Of a stretch of 32,000 bases of DNA, positions 9,608-18,767 are shown one piece after another. The stretch comes from Candidatus Bathyanammoxibius amoris (GTDB taxonomy: Bacteria; Planctomycetota; Brocadiia; Brocadiales; Bathyanammoxibiaceae): positions 75,042 through 107,041 of the forward strand of contig JAMXCW010000002.1 of assembly GCA_024451685.1 (NCBI GenBank), written 5' to 3'. Positions within the stretch are counted from its first letter, which is position 1, and each line of letters starts with the position of its first letter. Below the pieces are notes generated by a model. That model did not search any database. It saw nothing but the letters and a program-made list of their open reading frames with translations, and had not been told where the DNA came from. The position numbers and the translations under genes were made by a program.

Positions 9608-9639
9608 AGGGGCACGGCAATGCCGCGCCCCTTTGTTTT
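9608..9639 (+). terminator. rho-independent terminator of locus A
   Basis: AGGGGCACGGC-AAT-GCCGCGCCCCT forms a stem of 6+4 bp with one internal mismatch. It is followed by TTTGTTTT and lies 35 nt after the radical SAM stop. Confidence 0.7.
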
Positions 9640-9663: not shown

Positions 9664-10051
9664 ACGAGATTCTTCGCTGCCCCTTCGCTACGCTCAGGGC
9701 TTCGGCTCAGAATGACAACTCGTGGCGTGGTAGACAACGAGGTTTACCTCGTTGATCAACGACCATATCGAAGACTCGCCATGTTGTTGGGCGAGAAGGC
9801 CGTTGTTTACCAACTACGTTACATTACGCCTGAAAAATCTTTTTATGTAGCGTGGTAGCTCGCTGCCACGTTCTACGTTGGAGCAAGCTCCAACGCTACA
9901 TCGATTGTATATGGCCCCATAAATGGGGCAACTACAGTTGAAAGCCGCAGGGCTAAAGCCCTGCGGCACCCATAGATTAGGTAGGGGGCGGGGTGACCCC
10001 GACCCTACAGTGAATTATAACGTGGAGGGCAGCCATAAGGCCTGCCCCTAC
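9664..10051. repeat. array of short GC-rich hairpins, many flanked by GTAG/CTAC (REP/BIME-like)
   Basis: Stem-loops read directly: 9735-9754 (CAACGAGG/CCTCGTTG), 9851-9870 (CGTGG/CCACG), 9876-9895 (CGTTGGAGC/GCTCCAACG), 9914-9929 (GCCCCAT/ATGGGGC), 9944-9967 (GCCGCAGGGC/GCCCTGCGGC), 9981-10008 (GTAGGGGGCGGGG..CCCCGACCCTAC) and 10027-10048 (GGGCAG/CTGCCC). Confidence 0.6.
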
Positions 10052-10054
10052 AAA

Positions 10055-10768
10055 CTATTTGGGCAGGGGAGCGCCGCACCAGGCGCAGAATGTCCACGTG
10101 GCGGAGACCTCCTCCCCACACTTCGCACATGGAGGGGCATTCACCATCGCGTCGAACGGGGTGTGCCACGTGAAGACCGCCTTCTCGTACGGGCCGTCGG
10201 CATTAAGCACCAGGGTCAGCTTGGATTTCTTGTGTGTGTCAATTACAGGCTCGCCCTTTTTATCCTTGTTCGGGAATATCAGGACGTGCATGTTGGCGCC
10301 GCCGGCGTCGCCCTCCGAGGCCAGTATAGTCTTCATTGCCGCAACGGTCGCCGCAACCATGGGGGGCGGGTCGTCTACGGGCCGGATTTTAGAGCCGTCC
10401 GGCGCCAGCAGCACCGCTCTTTTCCGGACTTCGCTTTCACCCGCATACATAGAGGAGCCGTCGGGCTGCATGATGCTGCTCTGGATGACCATGGTGATGT
10501 ACGGCTTAAGGAACCCCATGTCCTGTTCTATGACGTCCCTTGGCTGACGGGTATCGGTAAGACTTGCCTCCACGTAGAAATCGAACGGCATCCACATGGC
10601 AAGCTGTGTAACGTCACCCAGTATCTCTACTTTCAGTATCTCGGTAACAAAGCTGCCGAGGTCGGCATTTGGCTTCGCGCCGGCTCCCTGCTGGGCAGCC
10701 AGGGTCTGGGGGAACGCGGCGACACAGAACAGAACCGCGGCCATAAAAAGAATCCTTGGGGTCTTCAC
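10055..10768 (-). CDS. exported hypothetical protein with C-terminal CxxC...CxxC zinc-ribbon-like tail
   Basis: 237 aa. Signal peptide MKTPRILFMAAVLFCVAAFPQTLAAQQ. GTG start with AAGGAGAG 5 nt upstream. C-terminus CAKCGEEVSATWTFCAWCG. No family recognised. Confidence 0.6.
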   Translation of the reverse strand: MKTPRILFMAAVLFCVAAFPQTLAAQQGAGAKPNADLGSFVTEILKVEILGDVTQLAMWMPFDFYVEASLTDTRQPRDVIEQDMGFLKPYITMVIQSSIMQPDGSSMYAGESEVRKRAVLLAPDGSKIRPVDDPPPMVAATVAAMKTILASEGDAGGANMHVLIFPNKDKKGEPVIDTHKKSKLTLVLNADGPYEKAVFTWHTPFDAMVNAPPCAKCGEEVSATWTFCAWCGAPLPK

Positions 10769-10829
10769 GGTGCTCTCCTTTCAAAAACGTATTACCTTCA
10801 TGTCTGCCAGCGCGGCCGGACGGTGAAGG

Positions 10830-11174
10830 TTATTCTCCCGTTGGGAATATCATCGTATCGAGGTCTTTTACCAGTTGATACATCCTGCGGGCGTCTTGCA
10901 GGGCCTGTTCCTGGTTTACAAGCGGTATTATCTCTATCTTTGTAAACAGGGGGAACAGCGGCAGCTTTGTCACAATCGCCTCTATCTCCGCGTGGTCGTC
11001 CGCGTCAAAGATGGCCGCCGCGCCGCGGCGCCCGGCCAGTTTGCCGCCTGCCAGGACTTTCCCCCTCTTCTTCATCCTCTCGTAGAACTCCCATTCCTTT
11101 ATCAAGAGTTGAAAGAAATCCCTGACCGGCATCTGGTTAATCTTTTCTATCTCTACCTTTACTAGAAATAGCAT
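10830..11174 (-). CDS. muconolactone delta-isomerase-fold (MIase family) protein
   Basis: 114 aa. MLFLVKVEIE...IFDADDHAEIEAIVTKLPLFPLFTKIEIIPL parallels CatC-type muconolactone isomerases as I remember them (MLFxVxM...N..YSIFDV.S.EELH.LL..LPLFPYM.IEV.PL). GAGGTG RBS 7 nt upstream. Confidence 0.6.
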   Translation of the reverse strand: MLFLVKVEIEKINQMPVRDFFQLLIKEWEFYERMKKRGKVLAGGKLAGRRGAAAIFDADDHAEIEAIVTKLPLFPLFTKIEIIPLVNQEQALQDARRMYQLVKDLDTMIFPTGE

Positions 11175-11300: not shown

Positions 11301-12044
11301 TTACATGGCCATGCCGCCGTCTACGGTAATTACTTGACCCGTGATATAACTGGCCTCGTCCGAGGCCAGGAAAGCCACCACGCGGGCCACCTCTTCGGTC
11401 TCGCCGACGCGGCCCAGAGGCACCAGCTTCAACATCTCGTCCAGGTATTTCTGCTCTATCGCTTTAACCATATCCGTCTTAATGAAACCCGGCGCCACCG
11501 CGTTTACCCGCACCCCGCGCCTTGCCACCTCCTTGGCCAGGGCCTTGGTAAAACCAACTATCCCGGCCTTTGAGGAGGAATAGTTGGTCTGTCCCGCCAT
11601 GCCGACAAGCCCGCTGACGGAGCTTATGTTTATTATCGAGCCGCTCCGCTGCTTCATCATGGGCAACACGGCGGCCTTGGTGCAGTTGAACACGCCGTTC
11701 AGGTTGGTATCTATCACGGCCCTCCAGTCCTCTTCCGACATCATCATCAATATCTTGTCCCTGGTTATACCGGCGTTGTTTACCAGGATGTCTACCTTTC
11801 CGAGTTCCTTTATGGCATTGCTAATCATCTCTTTTGACCGGGCAAAGTCCGCGACGTCGCTCTGCACGGAAAACGCCTTTACGCCCAGCTTGCTTATCTC
11901 GCCCTCAAGCTCCTTCGCCTTCTCCACGTTCTTCGCGTAGCTGAAGGCCACGTCCGCGCCGTTTCCGGCAAGCTCAAGGGCTATCGCCCTCCCGATACCC
12001 CTGGTACCACCCGTGACAATAGCCGTCTTCCCTTTTAATGACAT
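11301..12044 (-). CDS. fabG: 3-oxoacyl-ACP reductase
   Basis: 247 aa classical SDR. TGGTRGIGRAIA, NNAGI, the Ser...YSSSK catalytic motif and the C-terminal ITGQVITVDGGMAM typical of FabG. Confidence 0.9.
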   Translation of the reverse strand: MSLKGKTAIVTGGTRGIGRAIALELAGNGADVAFSYAKNVEKAKELEGEISKLGVKAFSVQSDVADFARSKEMISNAIKELGKVDILVNNAGITRDKILMMMSEEDWRAVIDTNLNGVFNCTKAAVLPMMKQRSGSIINISSVSGLVGMAGQTNYSSSKAGIVGFTKALAKEVARRGVRVNAVAPGFIKTDMVKAIEQKYLDEMLKLVPLGRVGETEEVARVVAFLASDEASYITGQVITVDGGMAM

Positions 12045-12080
12045 GTTACCTTCTCCACGTTTTATAATGAAACAAGCGAC

Positions 12081-12128: not shown

Positions 12129-14135
12129 TTATACAGTAAGTCCTATCTTAAAGCCTTCATGGATCGCCTCCATCGCGGTCCTTACCTGCACGCAGTCGCC
12201 GATAGTATATATCTCAGGCACGAGACCGTTAAGGTGTTTATGGAGCGAGTCGTCGGATATGTACCCGGTAGCAATTATCACCGTTTCCGCGGGTATAAAA
12301 GTCTCCCGGCCGTCCTTTTCATACAACACGCCGCTCTCTGGCTCCTCTTTGACTTCCTTTACCTTTACGGTCGTGACGGCCTTTATGCCTGCGCCCTCCA
12401 TCTCCCTTTCCATCACCCAGCGTGTGGATATCCCGAAACCGCCGGCGACTCTCCTCTTCATCTCGAGAATGGTGACGTTCCTGTGGCCCCTTGAGGATTT
12501 TTCCAATGCGGTCGGCAGGTCTATTATATCATTCTTTAGCAAGAACATCGCCACATCCGGTTTCATACTGCCCAGCTTGGCCACGTAGAGGGCCGTCTCA
12601 CTGCCTACCGTCCCGCCGCCTATTATAACAACCTCACGGCCAACCGGCACCCTCCCGTCCAGTACGTCCTTCGCCAGCACGATGTTATTCCCGTTTATCC
12701 CCGGAATCGGCGGGATGGACGGCGTTGAACCAGTTGACAGTATCAGCACGTTCGGTTTTTCCTTCTTGATTATATCCGGGTTTGCCTCAACGCCCAGGAC
12801 GACCTTCACCTTTTCCTTCTTTATCTGTCTTTCCAGATATTTTATAACGTTTACAAACTCCTCGCGGCCAGGGGGCTTGTAGGCATAGTGCAACTGACCC
12901 CCAAGGATTTTTTCTTTCTCATACAGTGTTACGTCATGGCCTCTCAGCGCGGCCACCCGGGCCGCCTCCATTCCTCCGGGACCGCCCCCTACAACAAGGA
13001 TCTTCCTCTTCTTTGCCGCCGGTGTTATGGTATATTCTTTTTCCCTCCCTGCCCTGGGATTGTACAGGCAGGTGACGGCCCTCATGTTCAAGAGTTCATC
13101 AAAGCAGCCCTGGTTGCATGCTATACACGTCCTTATGTCCTCAAGCCTGCCTTCCTTATATTTATTGGGCAGCTCTGGGTCCGCTATGAGCGGTCTGCCG
13201 ATGGATACCAGGTCTGTCTGCCCGTCCCTGAGCAGCTCTTCCGCAACGGTAAGGTCATTTATCCTGACAGCCGCTATTACGGGTATGTCCACGTTTTCTT
13301 TGATGGAGGTTGCCAGAACCACGTAAGCGGTTCTGGGGATTACCATCAGCATTACGGGTACCTTGCTTTCGTGCCACCCCGGCGACACGTGGAAGGCGTC
13401 CACGCCGAGTCCGGCAAGTCTCTGGGCGATTTGTATATTGTCCTTAATCTTCAGACCGCCCTCCATCAGCTCATCCCCGGAGAGTCTAAAGATTACGGGA
13501 AAATCCTCCCCAGCGGTCTCTTTGACGGCCTCTATGGTTTCAACGGCAAAGCGCAGCCTTTTCTCCGGGCTGCCGCCGTACTCGTCGTTTCTTTTATTGC
13601 TTATTGGTGAGAGGAACTGGTTGATGAGGTATCCCATGCCGCCGTGAATCTCTACGGCATCGAAGCCCGCGTCTTTGGCCCTTTTTGCGGCCAGGGCGTA
13701 GTTTTGTATTACCTGTTTTATCTCCGGGATGCTTAAGGCCCTGGACGTGTCTCTGGCCAGTCGTGAGGGCACGCTCGATGCCGATACGGGCTGCATCTTT
13801 GAGAACAGGCTTGAGGCATAACGCCCGCCATGGAGTATCTGGGCAGCGGCCTTTGTGCCGTGACGGTGCATAGCCCCGGTGAATCTGGCGAGTGAGGGGA
13901 TGTAGCGGTCGTCGTCCAGCCCGAGGATGCTCTTCCACGCCTTGCCGTTCTGTTCCGGATAGCACCCGCCGACAACGATGAGCCCCACACCTCCGTCGGC
14001 CCTCTCCGTATAGAAATCAACAAAACGGTCATTGACAAAGCCGCCGGTAGTGAAGCCAAGGTCCATTGCCGTCATCACGAGACGGTTTTCCAGCTGCAAC
14101 GGGCCTATATTTATTGTGTTAAACAGGCTGACCAT
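12129..14135 (-). CDS. FadH-type 2,4-dienoyl-thioester reductase-like flavoprotein (OYE FMN barrel + 4Fe-4S + FAD/NAD(P)H domains)
   Basis: 668 aa. N-terminal OYE-like barrel (GFDAVEIHGGMGYLINQFLSP). Cys motif CIACNQGCFDELLNMRAVTC (Cx2Cx3Cx11C, as in E. coli FadH). C-terminal Rossmann folds ILVVGGGPGGMEAA and VVIIGGGTVGSETA. Confidence 0.85.
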   Translation of the reverse strand: MVSLFNTINIGPLQLENRLVMTAMDLGFTTGGFVNDRFVDFYTERADGGVGLIVVGGCYPEQNGKAWKSILGLDDDRYIPSLARFTGAMHRHGTKAAAQILHGGRYASSLFSKMQPVSASSVPSRLARDTSRALSIPEIKQVIQNYALAAKRAKDAGFDAVEIHGGMGYLINQFLSPISNKRNDEYGGSPEKRLRFAVETIEAVKETAGEDFPVIFRLSGDELMEGGLKIKDNIQIAQRLAGLGVDAFHVSPGWHESKVPVMLMVIPRTAYVVLATSIKENVDIPVIAAVRINDLTVAEELLRDGQTDLVSIGRPLIADPELPNKYKEGRLEDIRTCIACNQGCFDELLNMRAVTCLYNPRAGREKEYTITPAAKKRKILVVGGGPGGMEAARVAALRGHDVTLYEKEKILGGQLHYAYKPPGREEFVNVIKYLERQIKKEKVKVVLGVEANPDIIKKEKPNVLILSTGSTPSIPPIPGINGNNIVLAKDVLDGRVPVGREVVIIGGGTVGSETALYVAKLGSMKPDVAMFLLKNDIIDLPTALEKSSRGHRNVTILEMKRRVAGGFGISTRWVMEREMEGAGIKAVTTVKVKEVKEEPESGVLYEKDGRETFIPAETVIIATGYISDDSLHKHLNGLVPEIYTIGDCVQVRTAMEAIHEGFKIGLTV

Positions 14136-14152: not shown

Positions 14153-14185
14153 CAAAAAATAAAGAAGCAGGGCAAAAGGCCCTGC
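14153..14185 (-). terminator. rho-independent terminator inside locus B (between the KS-like partner and the FadH-like gene)
   Basis: On the minus strand, GCAGGGC-CTTTT-GCCCTGC (perfect 7-bp stem) is followed by TTCTTTATTTTTTG. It starts 30 nt after the stop at 14216 and ends 17 nt before the ATG at 14135. Confidence 0.55.
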
Positions 14186-14215
14186 CGCGCGATATTATAA
14201 CCATTGAAAATGAAA

Positions 14216-15457
14216 TTACATATCACTTTTTTCCACTACGAGGCTGGTGCAGTTTCCATTCAGGTCGAGAGAGTTGACTATTGCCACCTTTATGTCCTGT
14301 TTAAGCTCGTCCCCCAGTACGAAATTCAGCTCGCACTCAGGGTCCGGCACCTTGTAGTTCCTCATCGGAGGGATGGTCGATTTTTCCATGGCCAGCAGGC
14401 AAAAGGCCATTTGCATCGCCCCTGATGCGCCGTAACACTCACCGGTCTGAGACTTTATAGAACTTACCGGTACGTCTCTCAAGCCGTCTCCCAGCAGCGC
14501 TTTAACGGCCCTGGCCTCTATGAGGTCCGTCTGCTTTGAAGAATTACCGTTTGCGCAGATAAGCCCCAAGGAATCCTTTGATTGTCCGGCCTGTTCAAGA
14601 GCCTGCTCCATGGTATTTTTCACTCTCTCTGTCTTTTCTTCCAGGCTGAACCTCCTGGCTCCCATGTAAGCTAGTCCGTGACCGGTGAGCTCCGCATATA
14701 CGCGGGCTCCCCGCCTGCGTGCATATTCCATGTCCTCTATGACAAACACGTAACTGCCCTCACCGAGGATGAAGCCGTTCCTGCGCTTATCAAACGGGGC
14801 GCTTATCTCTGGTTCAGAGTCCTGCGAACCAGCCAGAAGTTTTTGCATAAGAAAGATGATGTAACTGTCGAGCGAGATTTGTTCCACCCCGCCGGCAATG
14901 AGCACATCCACCCTGTTTGTCTGTATCAAGCTAAAGGCGTCGCCGATAGCGTCGGCGCTGGACGTGAATCCTGAGGTAATTGTCCTTGAAGGACCGGTGA
15001 GTTTAAAAAATACTGAAGCAAAGTTTGTAGAGGAATTCAGTGCCACGTCATAGCTGTCCATGGGAAGGAGCTTTTCAGGCCCGCGTTTAAGGATCTCATA
15101 CGTATAATCCGTTGTCTGTGGGTAATTGCCGAGGGCTGAACCTATTACAACGCCCGTGTCATCAGGACAGTGATTGCCGTTCTGGAAGAGTTTAGCGTCT
15201 TCGAGGGCAAGTTTCGTTGCAGACGCAAGAAATTTGGTACCCTTTGTCAGATATTTAAGGCCCTTGTCACCGAGATATTCAGAGGGATTCAGGCCCTTTA
15301 CTTCCGCAGCCAGTTTACAAGGATACCCGGAGACGTCAAGGGACGTGATCGGGGCGATACCGGAATGGCCTCCGGCAAGATTCTTCCAGAATTCCTCATG
15401 CCCAAACCCCAGCGGAGAGATTATACCGATGCCAGTTATTACGGTCCTTTTCTTCAT
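14216..15457 (-). CDS. KS-like protein lacking the whole catalytic triad (second chain-length-factor-like partner)
   Basis: 413 aa KS fold. Cys->Phe (RTITSGFTSSADAIG), His->Asn (ICANGNSSKQTD), His->Glu (SSIKSQTGECYGASGA). Its ATG overlaps the upstream KS stop (ATGA at 15454-15457). Confidence 0.85.
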   Translation of the reverse strand: MKKRTVITGIGIISPLGFGHEEFWKNLAGGHSGIAPITSLDVSGYPCKLAAEVKGLNPSEYLGDKGLKYLTKGTKFLASATKLALEDAKLFQNGNHCPDDTGVVIGSALGNYPQTTDYTYEILKRGPEKLLPMDSYDVALNSSTNFASVFFKLTGPSRTITSGFTSSADAIGDAFSLIQTNRVDVLIAGGVEQISLDSYIIFLMQKLLAGSQDSEPEISAPFDKRRNGFILGEGSYVFVIEDMEYARRRGARVYAELTGHGLAYMGARRFSLEEKTERVKNTMEQALEQAGQSKDSLGLICANGNSSKQTDLIEARAVKALLGDGLRDVPVSSIKSQTGECYGASGAMQMAFCLLAMEKSTIPPMRNYKVPDPECELNFVLGDELKQDIKVAIVNSLDLNGNCTSLVVEKSDM

Positions 15458-16659
15458 ACCCTACCAAAAACAACGCTGGCATTATTACCGCCAAAGGCAA
15501 ACGAGTTATTCAAGGCGAATCTAACCTCTTTGTTTCTTGCCTCATTAGGCACGCAATCCAGGTCGCATTCCGGGTCCTTTGTCTCGTAGTTTATCGTCGG
15601 GGGGAGTTCTCCAAACTTTATGGCCAGGCAGCACACGGCAGACTCAATGGCGCTTGCCGCTCCCATGGTGTGGCCGATCATTGACTTTACCGAGCTGCAT
15701 GGAATCTGCGGGGTTCTCTCTTTAAAGACCGTCTTGACTGCAAGGGTTTCCATTTTGTCATTCAGCGGCGTGCCTGTGCCGTGCGCGCTTATATAATCTA
15801 CGTCCTCATACGAAAGCTTGGCGCATCCCAGTGCCGCCTCCATTGCCCTGATAGCGCCTTCCCCTTTAGGATGGGGAGCGGTCATGTGAAAACCGTCGCT
15901 GCTGAGACCGTAGCCCTTTACTTCAGCATATGTGTTCGCGCCGCGTTTTGTTGCATGCTCCAGAGTCTCAAGTATCAGCATCCCCGCGCCGGCCCCCACG
16001 ACCAGACCCTGTCTGTTTTTATCAAACGGCTGGCATTTCTCCGGCGCCAGGGCCTTCAGGTTGTGGAAGTGCGTAAATTCAGTTTGCGGTACTATGTCGC
16101 TTCCGCCGACTACCATTGCGTTAACCTTTCCTTCCTGCAGCATGTCAAAGGCCCAGCACAGGGCATGGTTTCCGGAGGAGCAGGCGTTAATCAGAATGAT
16201 ATTGGGACCTTCTACGTGAAAATCTTCTGCCAGCTGAGTCGATAAGGTCGCCGGGGGATAACGCAGGACCACGTCCAGACTAAACCCGGAGGCCTTGTCA
16301 CGGGGGTTGTCCCTTAGCTTATGCTCAAAGGCGGAGAGTTCTCCGGCAAGCGTTCCTATGGACATACCGACTTTATCTATTTCCAGGCCCTTGTAGTCAA
16401 ATATGCCGCTATCTTGAAGCGCCTCCCTGGTAGCTACGTAAAGACAATCGTAAACAGTATATCCGTTCTTGGATGGTGGGGTACCGTTGGAGTTCAGACT
16501 TTTTAACTCACAGGCACGGTGAACCTTGTATCTGGAGGTGTCAAAGGTGGTAATTTCCGAGACACCATCCCGGCCATTAAGCATTGCTTCCCAGGATTTT
16601 TTTCTGTCCGAACCAATGGCCGTTACCAAGCCGAGGCCTGTCACAACTACTCTGGGCAT
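15454..16659 (-). CDS. beta-ketoacyl-ACP synthase, FabF-like, catalytic triad intact (second copy)
   Basis: 401 aa. IILINACSSGNHAL (Cys), [15 protein letters not shown] (His), [16 protein letters not shown] (His). Starts 16 nt after the radical SAM stop. Confidence 0.9.
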   Translation of the reverse strand: MPRVVVTGLGLVTAIGSDRKKSWEAMLNGRDGVSEITTFDTSRYKVHRACELKSLNSNGTPPSKNGYTVYDCLYVATREALQDSGIFDYKGLEIDKVGMSIGTLAGELSAFEHKLRDNPRDKASGFSLDVVLRYPPATLSTQLAEDFHVEGPNIILINACSSGNHALCWAFDMLQEGKVNAMVVGGSDIVPQTEFTHFHNLKALAPEKCQPFDKNRQGLVVGAGAGMLILETLEHATKRGANTYAEVKGYGLSSDGFHMTAPHPKGEGAIRAMEAALGCAKLSYEDVDYISAHGTGTPLNDKMETLAVKTVFKERTPQIPCSSVKSMIGHTMGAASAIESAVCCLAIKFGELPPTINYETKDPECDLDCVPNEARNKEVRFALNNSFAFGGNNASVVFGRV

Positions 16660-16675
16660 GATATGGATATCTCTT

Positions 16676-18157
16676 CTAAAAGACCTTCGTGGTTATCAGG
16701 CTGGAGGATTCGTTAAATCTTTCCTTCTTCCCTATCCGGCCCAGGGCCTCCTGGTACTTCCCGGAGGCCTCCAATTTTTGCAGGTTTTCTATGAAATGTG
16801 CGATGACTTCCCGCCAGTCCCAGTTGACCTTGAGGGCAAACATGGCGGAGTTGTTATTGTTCAAGGCCTGCCTCGAGTTTTGGAATCTCGCCCTGATGGA
16901 CTCGGTGGACCATAGCCGCTGCTGCAGGCGCTGTAACCCCTCGGTAAGCTCCTGAATGGAGAGATTGTTAAGGATGTGGACAAGGTGGTGAGACGTGTAA
17001 TATACCCAATCCTCGGGGAAGTTCGTACGGAAAAGCCTGTTACCACCCTCCAGACGTTTGTAAAGGGGGGTATTGATAAACGGGCAAAGTATGCCGCATG
17101 TCATTATGTCAAGGTTGGAACCCAGCACAAATTCCGATACCTCGTCAAAGGTGTCTATAGTGTCGGCATCATTGCCAAATATCACGGTACCCCAGACGGC
17201 TATGCCGTGTTTGCGAATGTTCTTAATGGCTTCATAATATTTATCTATGGTTATCCTCAGGTTGACGTGTTTGTTCATCGATTCCAGGGCTTCTTTATTC
17301 AGTGACTCTATCCCTATTAGCACCCCCACACAACCACTCCTGACCATGTAATCCAGGGTCTCGTCGTCCCTGAATATATTAAGTGACGTAAAACCGAACC
17401 AGTTCTGGTAGATGCCCCTTTCCACCATCTCTTTAAAGAGATTCCTGACCCTGTCGTTTGATTTTTTACTATGGCCGTAAAAATTCTCGTCGGTGAGCAC
17501 CAGCCCCCGGAACTGGCCCTGAATAGCCTCCATCTCGTCAAGCACGTCCTCTACGGGCCTCTCACGGTATTTGCGGCCCTGGGATTGAGGGACGGAGCAA
17601 AACTCACAACTGAAGGGGCACCCGGCAGATGTGGTTATTCCGGAGTAACGGTATTTATATTTCTTCTTCAGAAATTCCCTGTCGGGGTAAACTAACTTCA
17701 GATTTTCCAGCGGTGTAAGGCCGCCTTCGTAAAATTTCTGAAGACGTCCCTGTTCAAAATCCGACAGCAGCTTGTCCCAGATGGAAACGGCCTCTCTCTG
17801 TACGACACAATCTACGTGCTCGGCCACCTCATTGGGATAAATAGTCGCATGCACACCGCCCATTATTACCGGGATTTCCCTCTTCCGGCAGGCAGCGGCG
17901 ATCTGATAGGCACGCGGGGCCTGATAACTGACGGACGTTATCCCCACCAGATCCGCTCCCGGGAAACACAGGTTGCCGTTTTCGTCTACGGCGCTCTCCT
18001 CGGTTTCGTCTATTACGTCAACCTCCCAGCTATCCGGGGTCAGAGATACCAGGTAGCCCAGGTTTACAGGCATCTGGGCCAACACAGAGACGTTCTCCTC
18101 ACCGACGTTTCCTATCGGATGGGGATTTATAAGCACAAGTTTTCTTTTGCTTATCAT
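16676..18157 (-). CDS. B12-binding-domain radical SAM enzyme (paralog 2)
   Basis: 493 aa, colinear with the 8128-9573 product. Shared blocks include NPHP, YQAPRAYQIA, IMGG(I/V)HA, YPDRE(L/F)LKKKY and the CxxxCxxC motif TTSAGCPFSCEFCSVP. I estimate roughly half the residues are identical, by eye. Confidence 0.85.
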   Translation of the reverse strand: MISKRKLVLINPHPIGNVGEENVSVLAQMPVNLGYLVSLTPDSWEVDVIDETEESAVDENGNLCFPGADLVGITSVSYQAPRAYQIAAACRKREIPVIMGGVHATIYPNEVAEHVDCVVQREAVSIWDKLLSDFEQGRLQKFYEGGLTPLENLKLVYPDREFLKKKYKYRYSGITTSAGCPFSCEFCSVPQSQGRKYRERPVEDVLDEMEAIQGQFRGLVLTDENFYGHSKKSNDRVRNLFKEMVERGIYQNWFGFTSLNIFRDDETLDYMVRSGCVGVLIGIESLNKEALESMNKHVNLRITIDKYYEAIKNIRKHGIAVWGTVIFGNDADTIDTFDEVSEFVLGSNLDIMTCGILCPFINTPLYKRLEGGNRLFRTNFPEDWVYYTSHHLVHILNNLSIQELTEGLQRLQQRLWSTESIRARFQNSRQALNNNNSAMFALKVNWDWREVIAHFIENLQKLEASGKYQEALGRIGKKERFNESSSLITTKVF

Positions 18158-18249: not shown

Positions 18250-18615
18250 TCAATACGCGCCAGTCACCAATAATACCTGCCCTATGGCGTGGTCTTTTGT
18301 GTGGGTTATTGATACGTCCCATGAGCCGACACCCTTTTCCTCGGCGAGTTCCTTCGCCCTCCCATAAAGTTTAAGGTAAGGACGTCCCGAGGAATCATTG
18401 AGCAACTCAATATCTGTCCACTTCATCCCCGTACCCAGGGCCTTTACCACCGCCTCTTTTACGGCAAACCTGGCGGCCAGGTGTTCAAACTTATTCCTCT
18501 TAGAGAGGCTGTACTCTACCTCCCTGGGGGTGTATATGCGGTCAATAAAGGATTCGTAACGGGTAAAAAGGTCTTTAATTCTTCCAACTTCCACCAGGTC
18601 GATGCCTATGTACAC
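18250..18615 (-). CDS. acpS: holo-ACP synthase (4'-phosphopantetheinyl transferase)
   Basis: 121 aa. IGIDLVEVGRI, RFAVKEAVVKALG and WDVSITHTKDHA are typical AcpS blocks. GTG start with GGGGAG 8 nt upstream. Confidence 0.9.
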   Translation of the reverse strand: MYIGIDLVEVGRIKDLFTRYESFIDRIYTPREVEYSLSKRNKFEHLAARFAVKEAVVKALGTGMKWTDIELLNDSSGRPYLKLYGRAKELAEEKGVGSWDVSITHTKDHAIGQVLLVTGAY

Positions 18616-18665: not shown

Positions 18666-18694
18666 ATTCTATCTATTGTAGTAACAGTTGTCAA
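18666..18694 (-). promoter_or_regulatory. putative sigma70 promoter for locus B (acpS operon)
   Basis: On the minus strand: TTGACA (18694-18689), a 17-nt spacer, then TAGAAT (18671-18666). About 50 nt upstream of the acpS start. Confidence 0.5.
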
Positions 18695-18739
18695 CGAGAA
18701 ATTGACTGGTGGACCAGGTTATGCCTTACGCTCTTAATA

Positions 18740-18767
18740 TTGACAGCACAAAGGGATAGCATATAAT
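18740..18767 (+). promoter_or_regulatory. consensus sigma70 promoter for the MATE gene
   Basis: TTGACA (18740-18745), a 16-nt spacer, then TATAAT (18762-18767). The MATE ATG lies only 11 nt after the -10 element and has no Shine-Dalgarno. Confidence 0.55.

Follow-up and report, generated by a model that had tools for sequence, protein, structure and literature searches.

The locus described here raises the question of what a protein of the muconolactone isomerase family is doing beside fatty-acid genes in an anammox bacterium. The window, a stretch of 32,000 nucleotides from Candidatus Bathyanammoxibius amoris (assembly GCA_024451685.1, contig JAMXCW010000002.1, positions 75,042 to 107,041), carries on its minus strand, at 10830-11174, an open reading frame (ORF) with an ATG start and a product of 114 amino acids, referred to below as the MIase-like protein. 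The original prediction had placed a product of this length and family resemblance directly downstream of fabG; the ORF, its sequence (which matches the one quoted earlier exactly) and the position of FabG are all confirmed, the gene beginning 126 nt past the FabG stop. The protein belongs to a subfamily of the muconolactone isomerase family that is distinct from CatC, and it probably acts in lipid biosynthesis on acyl chains bound to acyl carrier protein (ACP). Its precise role is harder to name. We tentatively favor a Glu27-dependent proton transfer that shifts a double bond on ACP-bound acyl intermediates, a reading that we infer and consider possible, at slightly less than even confidence.

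Support for the gene being real comes from 60 database homologues, from 66 distinct orthologous sequences of the anammox type in genomes, and from ratios of nonsynonymous to synonymous substitution (dN/dS) of 0.05-0.12 in pairwise comparison with same-family relatives at 80-91% identity. The gene is under strong purifying selection. Because this evidence attaches to the minus-strand frame, two plus-strand ORFs that overlap it (9923-10945 and 10875-11165) were rejected as antisense artefacts. A Shine-Dalgarno-like GAGGTG (11187-11182, minus strand), read from the sequence, stands 7 nt before the ATG, and scans for promoters and terminators around the gene returned weak, chance-level sites only.

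Membership of the family and of its fold is established by profile matches, a confident predicted model, and the recovery of ClcF and MLI as the best structural matches of that model. The profile check proposed with the original prediction, once run, gave a significant match to Pfam MIase (PF02426), with E 5.5e-14 and a score of 52.5 bits (cut-off 26.7); the match aligns residues 1-87 with profile positions 1-86 of 90. A profile built for the MIase-like subfamily matches the muconolactone isomerase MLI (1MLI; 1.4e-18) and ClcF (about 1e-16), in both cases without gaps across approximately 90 residues and with E27 placed on E27. The AlphaFold model (pLDDT 92.2) is predicted to follow the ferredoxin-like order beta1-alpha1-beta2-beta3-alpha2-beta4, with an additional long helix at residues 88-109 that CatC-like sequences (91-99 amino acids) are too short to hold. 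In Foldseek searches of the PDB, the top 13 matches were ClcF and MLI chains (root-mean-square deviation, rmsd, of 1.4-1.9 Å across 88 residues; template-modeling (TM) scores of 0.80-0.87, normalized to the target), among them ClcF 3znu/3zo7 and MLI 1mli; entry 3zo7 is 'ClcF E27A with substrate'. Matches to the YCII-type proteins TftG and HI0828 were weaker (TM 0.59-0.62, normalized to the query), and the Pfam search recovered no polyketide-cyclase family and, beyond MIase, just sub-threshold matches to YCII (PF03795; 22.1 bits against a threshold of 24) and DUF3303. The resemblance to CatC in terminal motifs, suggested earlier, holds as a match to the family; LPLFPLFTKIEIIPL, which had been quoted as the C-terminus, does not end the protein, since 29 more residues follow it.

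Most database records call the protein 'muconolactone Delta-isomerase', and this name, together with the Pfam match, would be compatible with a true CatC enzyme of the beta-ketoadipate pathway. That identity is nonetheless extremely improbable, and CatC orthology was rejected on the combined evidence of equivalog score, phylogeny, residue set and genome content. The protein reaches only 39.6 bits against the 130.6 required by the CatC equivalog (NCBIfam TIGR03221), and a tree of 53 family members sets CatC-like sequences apart from all others with support of 100/99. The CatC-type residues W40, W44, R45, Y50, N52 and S54 are all replaced in anammox-type proteins, by V or I at position 40 (V in the window) and by G44, K45, R50, A52 and A54; every replacement except that at position 40 is invariant among the 66 sequences, and of the CatC-type active residues solely Glu27 is kept. 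In reading this comparison it should be noted that the CatC class was itself defined by W44, R45 and N52, with W40 (46/57), Y50 (42/57) and S54 (51/57) providing independent positions. The full set of invariant residues comprises E27, W28, R33, G43, G44, K45, G48, R50, G51, A52, A54 and E81. Further, the window genome (2.07 Mb, 95% complete) holds a single MIase-family gene, and profile searches across it gave no match to intradiol dioxygenases of the CatA type (catechol/protocatechuate; PF00775), no match to the enol-lactonase PcaD (TIGR02427), and at best 19 bits against the 335 required for muconate cycloisomerase (TIGR02534). The earlier remark that the window contains no other aromatic-pathway genes therefore extends to the entire genome. 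Anammox hosts are strict anaerobes, and the beta-ketoadipate pathway depends on O2-using ring cleavage. The database name is misleading in that it would wrongly imply aromatic catabolism in such organisms.

Comparison with the two characterized branches of the family places the protein outside both. With MLI/CatC of Pseudomonas putida (1MLI, EC 5.3.3.4) it shares the Pfam family, the beta-alpha-beta-beta-alpha-beta fold (rmsd 1.7 Å), an MLF(L/H)V N-terminus, Glu27, G38, G48, F56-D57 and an LPLFP...IE..PL motif; it differs from MLI in its low identity (approximately 27%), its failure of the equivalog threshold, the six substitutions listed above, its extra C-terminal helix, and a lipid rather than a cat/pca context. 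By analogy, the 1,3-proton shift beside a carbonyl that characterizes the family would be the chemistry proposed for the MIase-like protein. ClcF of Rhodococcus opacus 1CP (3ZNJ/3ZNU/3ZO7/4FPI) is the best structural match (TM 0.83-0.87, rmsd 1.4-1.7 Å) and shares Glu27, but at 24-26% sequence identity; unlike the MIase-like protein it retains W40, W44, R45, Y50 and N52, and its substrate is a chlorinated lactone of aerobic chlorocatechol breakdown. It nevertheless offers a precedent for a MIase-family enzyme retuned to a new substrate, and to elimination, with E27 kept.

The lipid context rests in the first place on FabG (11301..12044, minus strand; 247 amino acids), a 3-oxoacyl-ACP reductase that scores about 335 bits against the TIGR01830 cut-off of 297.75 and is the conserved upstream partner of the MIase-like gene. 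For the comparison of neighborhoods, the proteins of the window locus were run by tblastn on 20 loci at first and on another 65 afterwards. Of the 78 anammox-type loci with enough flanking sequence, in which some genomes are counted twice, 75 have FabG as the adjoining upstream gene in the same orientation, at a distance that ranges from -7 to 471 nt (median 140); the exceptions are loci L019 and L091, and L096, which is a truncated match. The window genome encodes four paralogues of the short-chain dehydrogenase/reductase type, and the partner FabG alone exceeds the TIGR01830 cut-off, the other three reaching 207-224 bits. It is likewise the sole equivalog-level FabG in five further anammox genomes, which represent three families (6/6 tested), and in a Scalindua genome it is the single match at E<1e-55. 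The ordinary fab cluster, running from FabH to FabF (genome G000, contig C25, 15433-19398), leaves no space for a fabG gene, in agreement with the gene table of Rattray (2009). It follows that ordinary and special fatty-acid synthesis probably share one reductase.

The distribution of the MIase-like protein follows that of the Brocadiales closely. It is present in 38 of 41 Brocadiales genomes, spanning five families, and in all 28 of the high-quality ones. A sample of 301 Planctomycetota genomes contained it in every Brocadiales genome, and the approximately 285 other genomes of that sample yielded one weak match (G196, 35% identity), with no lipid genes around the gene concerned. A pattern scan across GTDB, with each species represented by one genome, found 65 loci, and apart from a handful these came from Brocadiales. 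Against a strict restriction to anammox bacteria stand relatives at 44-55% identity in at least three genomes (G326, G327 and G328) without HzsA; in an 81-genome sample of the class to which G326 and G327 belong, which included no Brocadiales genome, these two alone carried the gene. A separate case is locus L067 (CAXMPV010000010.1), from a metagenome-assembled genome (MAG) labeled Thermodesulfobacteriota, whose contig carries a block of the Scalindua type: ketosynthase (KS), FadH, a crotonase-family enoyl-CoA hydratase (ECH), FabG and MIase. The MIase-like protein it encodes and that of a Scalindua genome (L023) are identical, so that the contig is probably mis-binned, and it was rejected as an independent Thermodesulfobacteriota lineage.

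The nearest non-anammox relatives join the anammox proteins inside a clade supported at 95/96, and one set of their genes stands in a second architecture in which a FabH-like ketoacyl-ACP synthase III (KAS III), sometimes followed by a ferredoxin, precedes the MIase-like gene. This arrangement was found in the Planctomycetota MAGs PNC17 (G326; loci L033/L037, QQUA01000023.1) and Bin8 (G327; locus L065, SHNF01000009.1) and on two metagenome contigs. Genes for a ketoreductase (KR), a KS, a short dead KS, B12-binding radical SAM (B12-rSAM) enzymes and phytoene-desaturase-like proteins lie 3-9 kb away. The PNC17 KR is 52% identical to the window FabG, compared with 31-32% to FabG paralogues, and the PNC17 KS is 40% identical to the window KS. 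In the 'Blastocatellia'-labeled MAG G328 (locus L049, DASRDY010000328.1) the order is instead KS-KS-FadH-crotonase-FabG-MIase, with three B12-rSAM homologues on the same 61-kb contig. Those non-anammox genomes with a MIase-like gene also encode homologues of the window B12-rSAM enzyme, at 47-53% identity. Hydrazine synthase was absent from G326, G327 and G328 in a search with the full HzsA protein, which was used instead of Pfam HZS_alpha, a profile that is unspecific as an anammox marker (it gave a Bacteroides control match and weak half-domain matches). Gene sets resembling a ladderane cluster thus occur in genomes lacking HzsA, and consist of B12-rSAM pairs or triplets, a KS with a short dead KS, and KR, desaturase-like and MIase-like genes. 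Downstream of the MIase-like gene in the FabH-type loci come one or two proteins of approximately 375-415 amino acids (L033:10323-12967 and L036:10341-12784) that are 45-49% identical between loci; these have no Pfam or NCBIfam match bar one weak GNAT, and no homologue in the window genome.

In the window, FabG and the MIase-like protein are the last two members of a longer minus-strand block. Its first gene encodes an AcpS-type phosphopantetheinyl transferase (18250..18615; Pfam ACPS), followed by a B12-binding radical SAM enzyme (16676..18157; 493 amino acids; Pfam Radical_SAM and B12-binding), a ketosynthase assigned by profile search and synteny (15454..16659; 401 amino acids), a non-canonical ketosynthase paralogue (14216..15457; 413 amino acids; Pfam ketoacyl-synt, with 320 bits against the fabF equivalog, under the cut-off of 493.75), and a FadH-like oxidoreductase of the old yellow enzyme/FAD type (12129..14135; 668 amino acids; Pfam Oxidored_FMN and Pyr_redox_2). 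The first four are counterparts of kuste2802, kuste2803, kuste2804 and kuste2805, in that order, which constitute one published candidate cluster for ladderane synthesis (Rattray 2009; Javidpour 2016) and in which kuste2805 is the 'non-canonical FabB' (Javidpour 2016). The MIase-like gene ends an extended form of this cluster. The published cluster, by contrast, comprises four genes, and the FadH-like, crotonase, FabG and MIase-like genes, which in Kuenenia and Brocadia lie elsewhere in the genome, are outside the 34 published candidates.

Comparison across families indicates how this block has come apart. Four of the families can be distinguished here as f1, the deep-branching Brocadiales family of the window genome, f2 (Scalinduaceae), f3, and f4 (Brocadiaceae). 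The full block, AcpS-rSAM-KS-KS-FadH-FabG-MIase, is syntenic in f1, f2 and part of f4; f3 loci retain FadH-crotonase-FabG-MIase, and the FadH-like gene, an ancestral member of the block, is syntenic in f1, f2, f3 and some f4 loci. In f4 genomes of the Brocadia/Kuenenia type, the FabG-MIase pair alone remains at the MIase locus, among unrelated neighbors (transposase, reverse transcriptase, glycosyltransferase, DUF520, MscS channel). The linkage with a FabG/FadH/KS-pair lipid block that the original prediction proposed to check is therefore strongly conserved, with FabG as the tightest partner; it does not hold throughout, as in genomes of the Brocadia/Kuenenia type the KS pair and FadH no longer lie with it. 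A crotonase-family gene (ECH_1, 260-266 amino acids) lies between FadH and FabG in Scalinduaceae, in f3, in FadH-bearing f4 loci and in one non-anammox locus (L017:7998-8798 in the Scalindua genome G031, L049:6468-7250, and 35 further loci). No such gene lies between positions 12045 and 12128 of the window, and none of the 14 f1 genomes holds an orthologue of it, the best match being at 33-36% identity. In Brocadia/Kuenenia-type genomes FadH and crotonase have shifted together to another site, still paired. The ancestral block is AcpS - B12-radical SAM - KS - dead KS - FadH-like - (crotonase) - FabG - MIase, with MIase last, and the persistence of FabG with MIase and the co-relocation of FadH with crotonase indicate that it broke into AcpS-rSAM-KS-KS, FadH-crotonase and FabG-MIase modules.

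Several observations concern the surroundings of these genes. Isolated FabG-MIase pairs have a reverse transcriptase gene (RVT_1; L015:7302-8198, genome G026) or a DDE transposase gene (L013:7240-8226, Brocadia) within 2-3 kb, which fits rearrangement around the pair by mobile elements. Directly downstream in the window, outside the conserved unit, is a 237-amino-acid protein with a C-terminal Zn ribbon (10055..10768, minus strand; Pfam Zn_Ribbon_1 at the cut-off, no NCBIfam match), which has a homologue in the same position only in a same-genus genome (loci L029 and L051). Two near-consensus sigma-70-like promoters stand back to back at 18666-18767, between the minus-strand AcpS gene and a plus-strand MatE gene. 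The one facing MatE reads TTGACA-16-TATAAT (12/12, plus strand), the one facing AcpS TTGACA-17-TAGAAT (11/12, minus strand). Judged from its motif, the latter is a plausible candidate promoter for the whole locus from AcpS to MIase. Strong terminator-like hairpins on the minus strand were found at 9608-9632 (11 pairs, 9 of them GC), where two lipid loci converge, and at 14166-14186 (8 pairs), inside the locus between the second KS and the FadH-like gene.

The original prediction had suggested that the protein could serve as a double-bond isomerase or a cyclase-like helper, and the retained Glu27 and the gene context would be consistent with such a role. If the protein is indeed a proton-transfer enzyme, Glu27 would act as a single base, taking a proton alpha or gamma to the carbonyl and giving it back two carbons away in a 1,3-proton shift. 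In place of a butenolide, the substrate would be an acyl chain, unsaturated or beta-functionalized, carried as an ACP thioester, and the outcome would be a double bond moved between the alpha,beta and beta,gamma positions, a reaction of the FabA/FabM type. With V/I, G, R, A and A in place of W40, W44, Y50, N52 and S54, the pocket should be larger and less polar, and the invariant K45, R50 and R33 could grip phosphopantetheine or ACP. Acting with FabG, FabZ, the FadH-like enzyme and, if present, the crotonase, the protein would set double-bond positions in short polyunsaturated intermediates, which in current ladderane models go to radical SAM enzymes. The likeness to FabA and FabM would be one of function only: these enzymes move a double bond from alpha,beta to beta,gamma in ACP thioesters during type II fatty-acid synthesis and are encoded among fab genes, and they have no sequence relationship to the MIase-like protein. 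FabA has a hot-dog fold and FabM a crotonase fold. Because its own fold is predicted to be ferredoxin-like, the MIase-like protein would be at most a functional analogue of either.

Three published points fit a double-bond shift of this kind: Kuenenia is reported to lack FabA (Rattray 2009); amxFabZ acting on amxACP takes substrates only up to C6 (Dietl 2023), a limit close to muconolactone with its six carbons (C6); and a 2026 review describes polyene-based ladderane models and remarks that a further enzyme may be required. The block contains two isomerase-type folds, of which the MIase-like one alone occurs in all five families, and because f1 has no cluster crotonase it is the only such fold left in the f1 block. 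Several points weigh against the proposal. The crotonase present in most families' block could itself supply enoyl-isomerase activity, so that the MIase-like protein is not the sole isomerase candidate. The partner FabG is a general reductase of the cell, and the pair may belong to ordinary fatty-acid synthesis instead of a ladderane pathway. The argument about the pocket is drawn from residue substitution; Y50 and N52 reportedly have roles in ClcF, which are backed here solely by their conservation in CatC-type sequences. A metagenomic homologue on a 21-kb contig (P0010; 89-90% identity) has Ala at position 27; this A27 may be a sequencing error or mark a genuine inactive copy. Finally, remote non-CatC branches (P0081-like) are often without E27, and no lipid genes lie near P0081-like members on the three contigs examined. 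The link to lipids is accordingly limited to the anammox clade and its nearest sister clade, and family membership alone does not predict a lipid role.

Among the other explanations, the one closest to a double-bond shift is a different acid/base chemistry, or a templated cyclization, on the same ACP-bound lipid intermediates. This could take the form of a beta-elimination as in ClcF (for instance, removal of water from the 3-hydroxyacyl chain that FabG produces), of keto-enol tautomerization of 3-oxoacyl-ACP, or of a TcmI-like templating or cyclase function, in which a polyunsaturated chain is folded ready for the radical SAM enzyme. We regard it as rather unlikely, although it has points in its favor: ClcF, which eliminates, is among the best sequence and structural matches, the tightest partner handles 3-oxo- and 3-hydroxyacyl-ACP, and in many lineages crotonase and FabZ-type enzymes may already cover isomerization and dehydration, so that a different step could fall to this protein. 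The sequence itself gives no signal for elimination over isomerization, and a dedicated FabZ, encoded in locus A of the window, counts against this reading. For the cyclase variant, TcmI cyclase and ActVA-Orf6-type proteins belong to the same broad structural superfamily (dimeric alpha+beta barrel), which includes polyketide cyclases. They are small ferredoxin-like proteins, encoded beside KS, chain-length factor (CLF) and KR genes, and act on ACP-bound or just-released poly-beta-keto or polyene chains, though many type II polyketide tailoring proteins of this kind need O2. The MIase-like protein has no significant sequence match to them, its Pfam search found no polyketide-cyclase family, and the Foldseek match is weak (RslO4, E 7e-3, TM approximately 0.39). 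The 2026 review does note that polycyclization may need 'an additional enzyme to stabilise the high-energy system', which would suit such a protein.

It is also conceivable that the protein is a non-catalytic partner with a MIase fold, whether an oligomeric scaffold, an adaptor that binds ACP or FabG, or a regulator of the reductase. Subunit pairs typically show the kind of linkage seen with FabG, which is kept when all else moves. The invariant R33, K45 and R50 could form, with the lineage-specific C-terminal helix, a docking surface for ACP or another protein, and the A27 variant P0010 occurs naturally. MLI-family proteins, moreover, assemble into large homo-oligomers. A homodecamer is cited in the literature for this family. 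We nonetheless consider this unlikely, because Glu27 never varies among the 66 anammox-type and the 4 FabH-type (sister-clade) sequences and is often lost in remote branches, and because nowhere is the protein more strictly conserved than at the positions conserved in CatC, with new residues, as would be expected of an active site that was retuned rather than one that decayed. A neighborhood that misleads altogether, the protein having a role outside lipid metabolism (for instance in stress, or as a small generic tautomerase-like protein) and simply sharing a transcript with FabG, is very unlikely. The variable FabG-MIase gap, together with a weak promoter-like site in the gap of the window, makes separate transcription of the MIase-like gene possible, and remote family members stand solitary in unrelated contexts; yet adjacency and orientation persist across five families despite extensive rearrangement of the surroundings, and the independent non-anammox architecture again places the gene beside fatty-acid genes (FabH-like, KR/KS/rSAM). 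A role in acyl-ACP lipid biosynthesis is probable, and within it the Glu27-dependent double-bond shift is tentatively preferred.

The assembly of ladderanes in anammox bacteria has been an open question for more than 20 years, and the published candidates, which include the 34 genes of Rattray (2009) and those of Javidpour (2016), have so far yielded no ladderane in heterologous hosts. The MIase-like protein is in neither list, and the word 'isomerase' appears in these papers not at all and once (in the title of a CrtI reference), respectively. In the literature searched, no paper links ladderane or Brocadia with muconolactone, and the two papers that combine anammox and muconolactone are irrelevant. 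The earlier supposition that such a protein is absent from published ladderane discussions agrees with this literature.

What is new here would be a MIase-family member outside the CatC and ClcF orthologous groups that resembles FabA and FabM in its work and is unrelated to them in origin. Its family chemistry, in which a double bond is moved beside a carbonyl, is what polyene-based models need, and its presence and absence match the pattern used by Liao et al., and it could be a fifth gene of the kind described there. The stronger claim, that the protein is an unlisted and essential component of ladderane biosynthesis that reshapes double bonds with FabG for cyclobutane closure by the B12-radical SAM enzyme, is quite unlikely as it stands. 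Were it true, the clusters in non-anammox Planctomycetota and in the Acidobacteriota-labeled MAG would make related, undescribed strained or cyclic lipids; a few genomes without HzsA do hold ladderane-like gene sets that include the MIase-like protein. Being small and likely soluble, the protein should express easily. It represents an overlooked and testable candidate for the pathway of ladderane-type lipids, and may be a missing ingredient of the reconstitution attempts that have failed.

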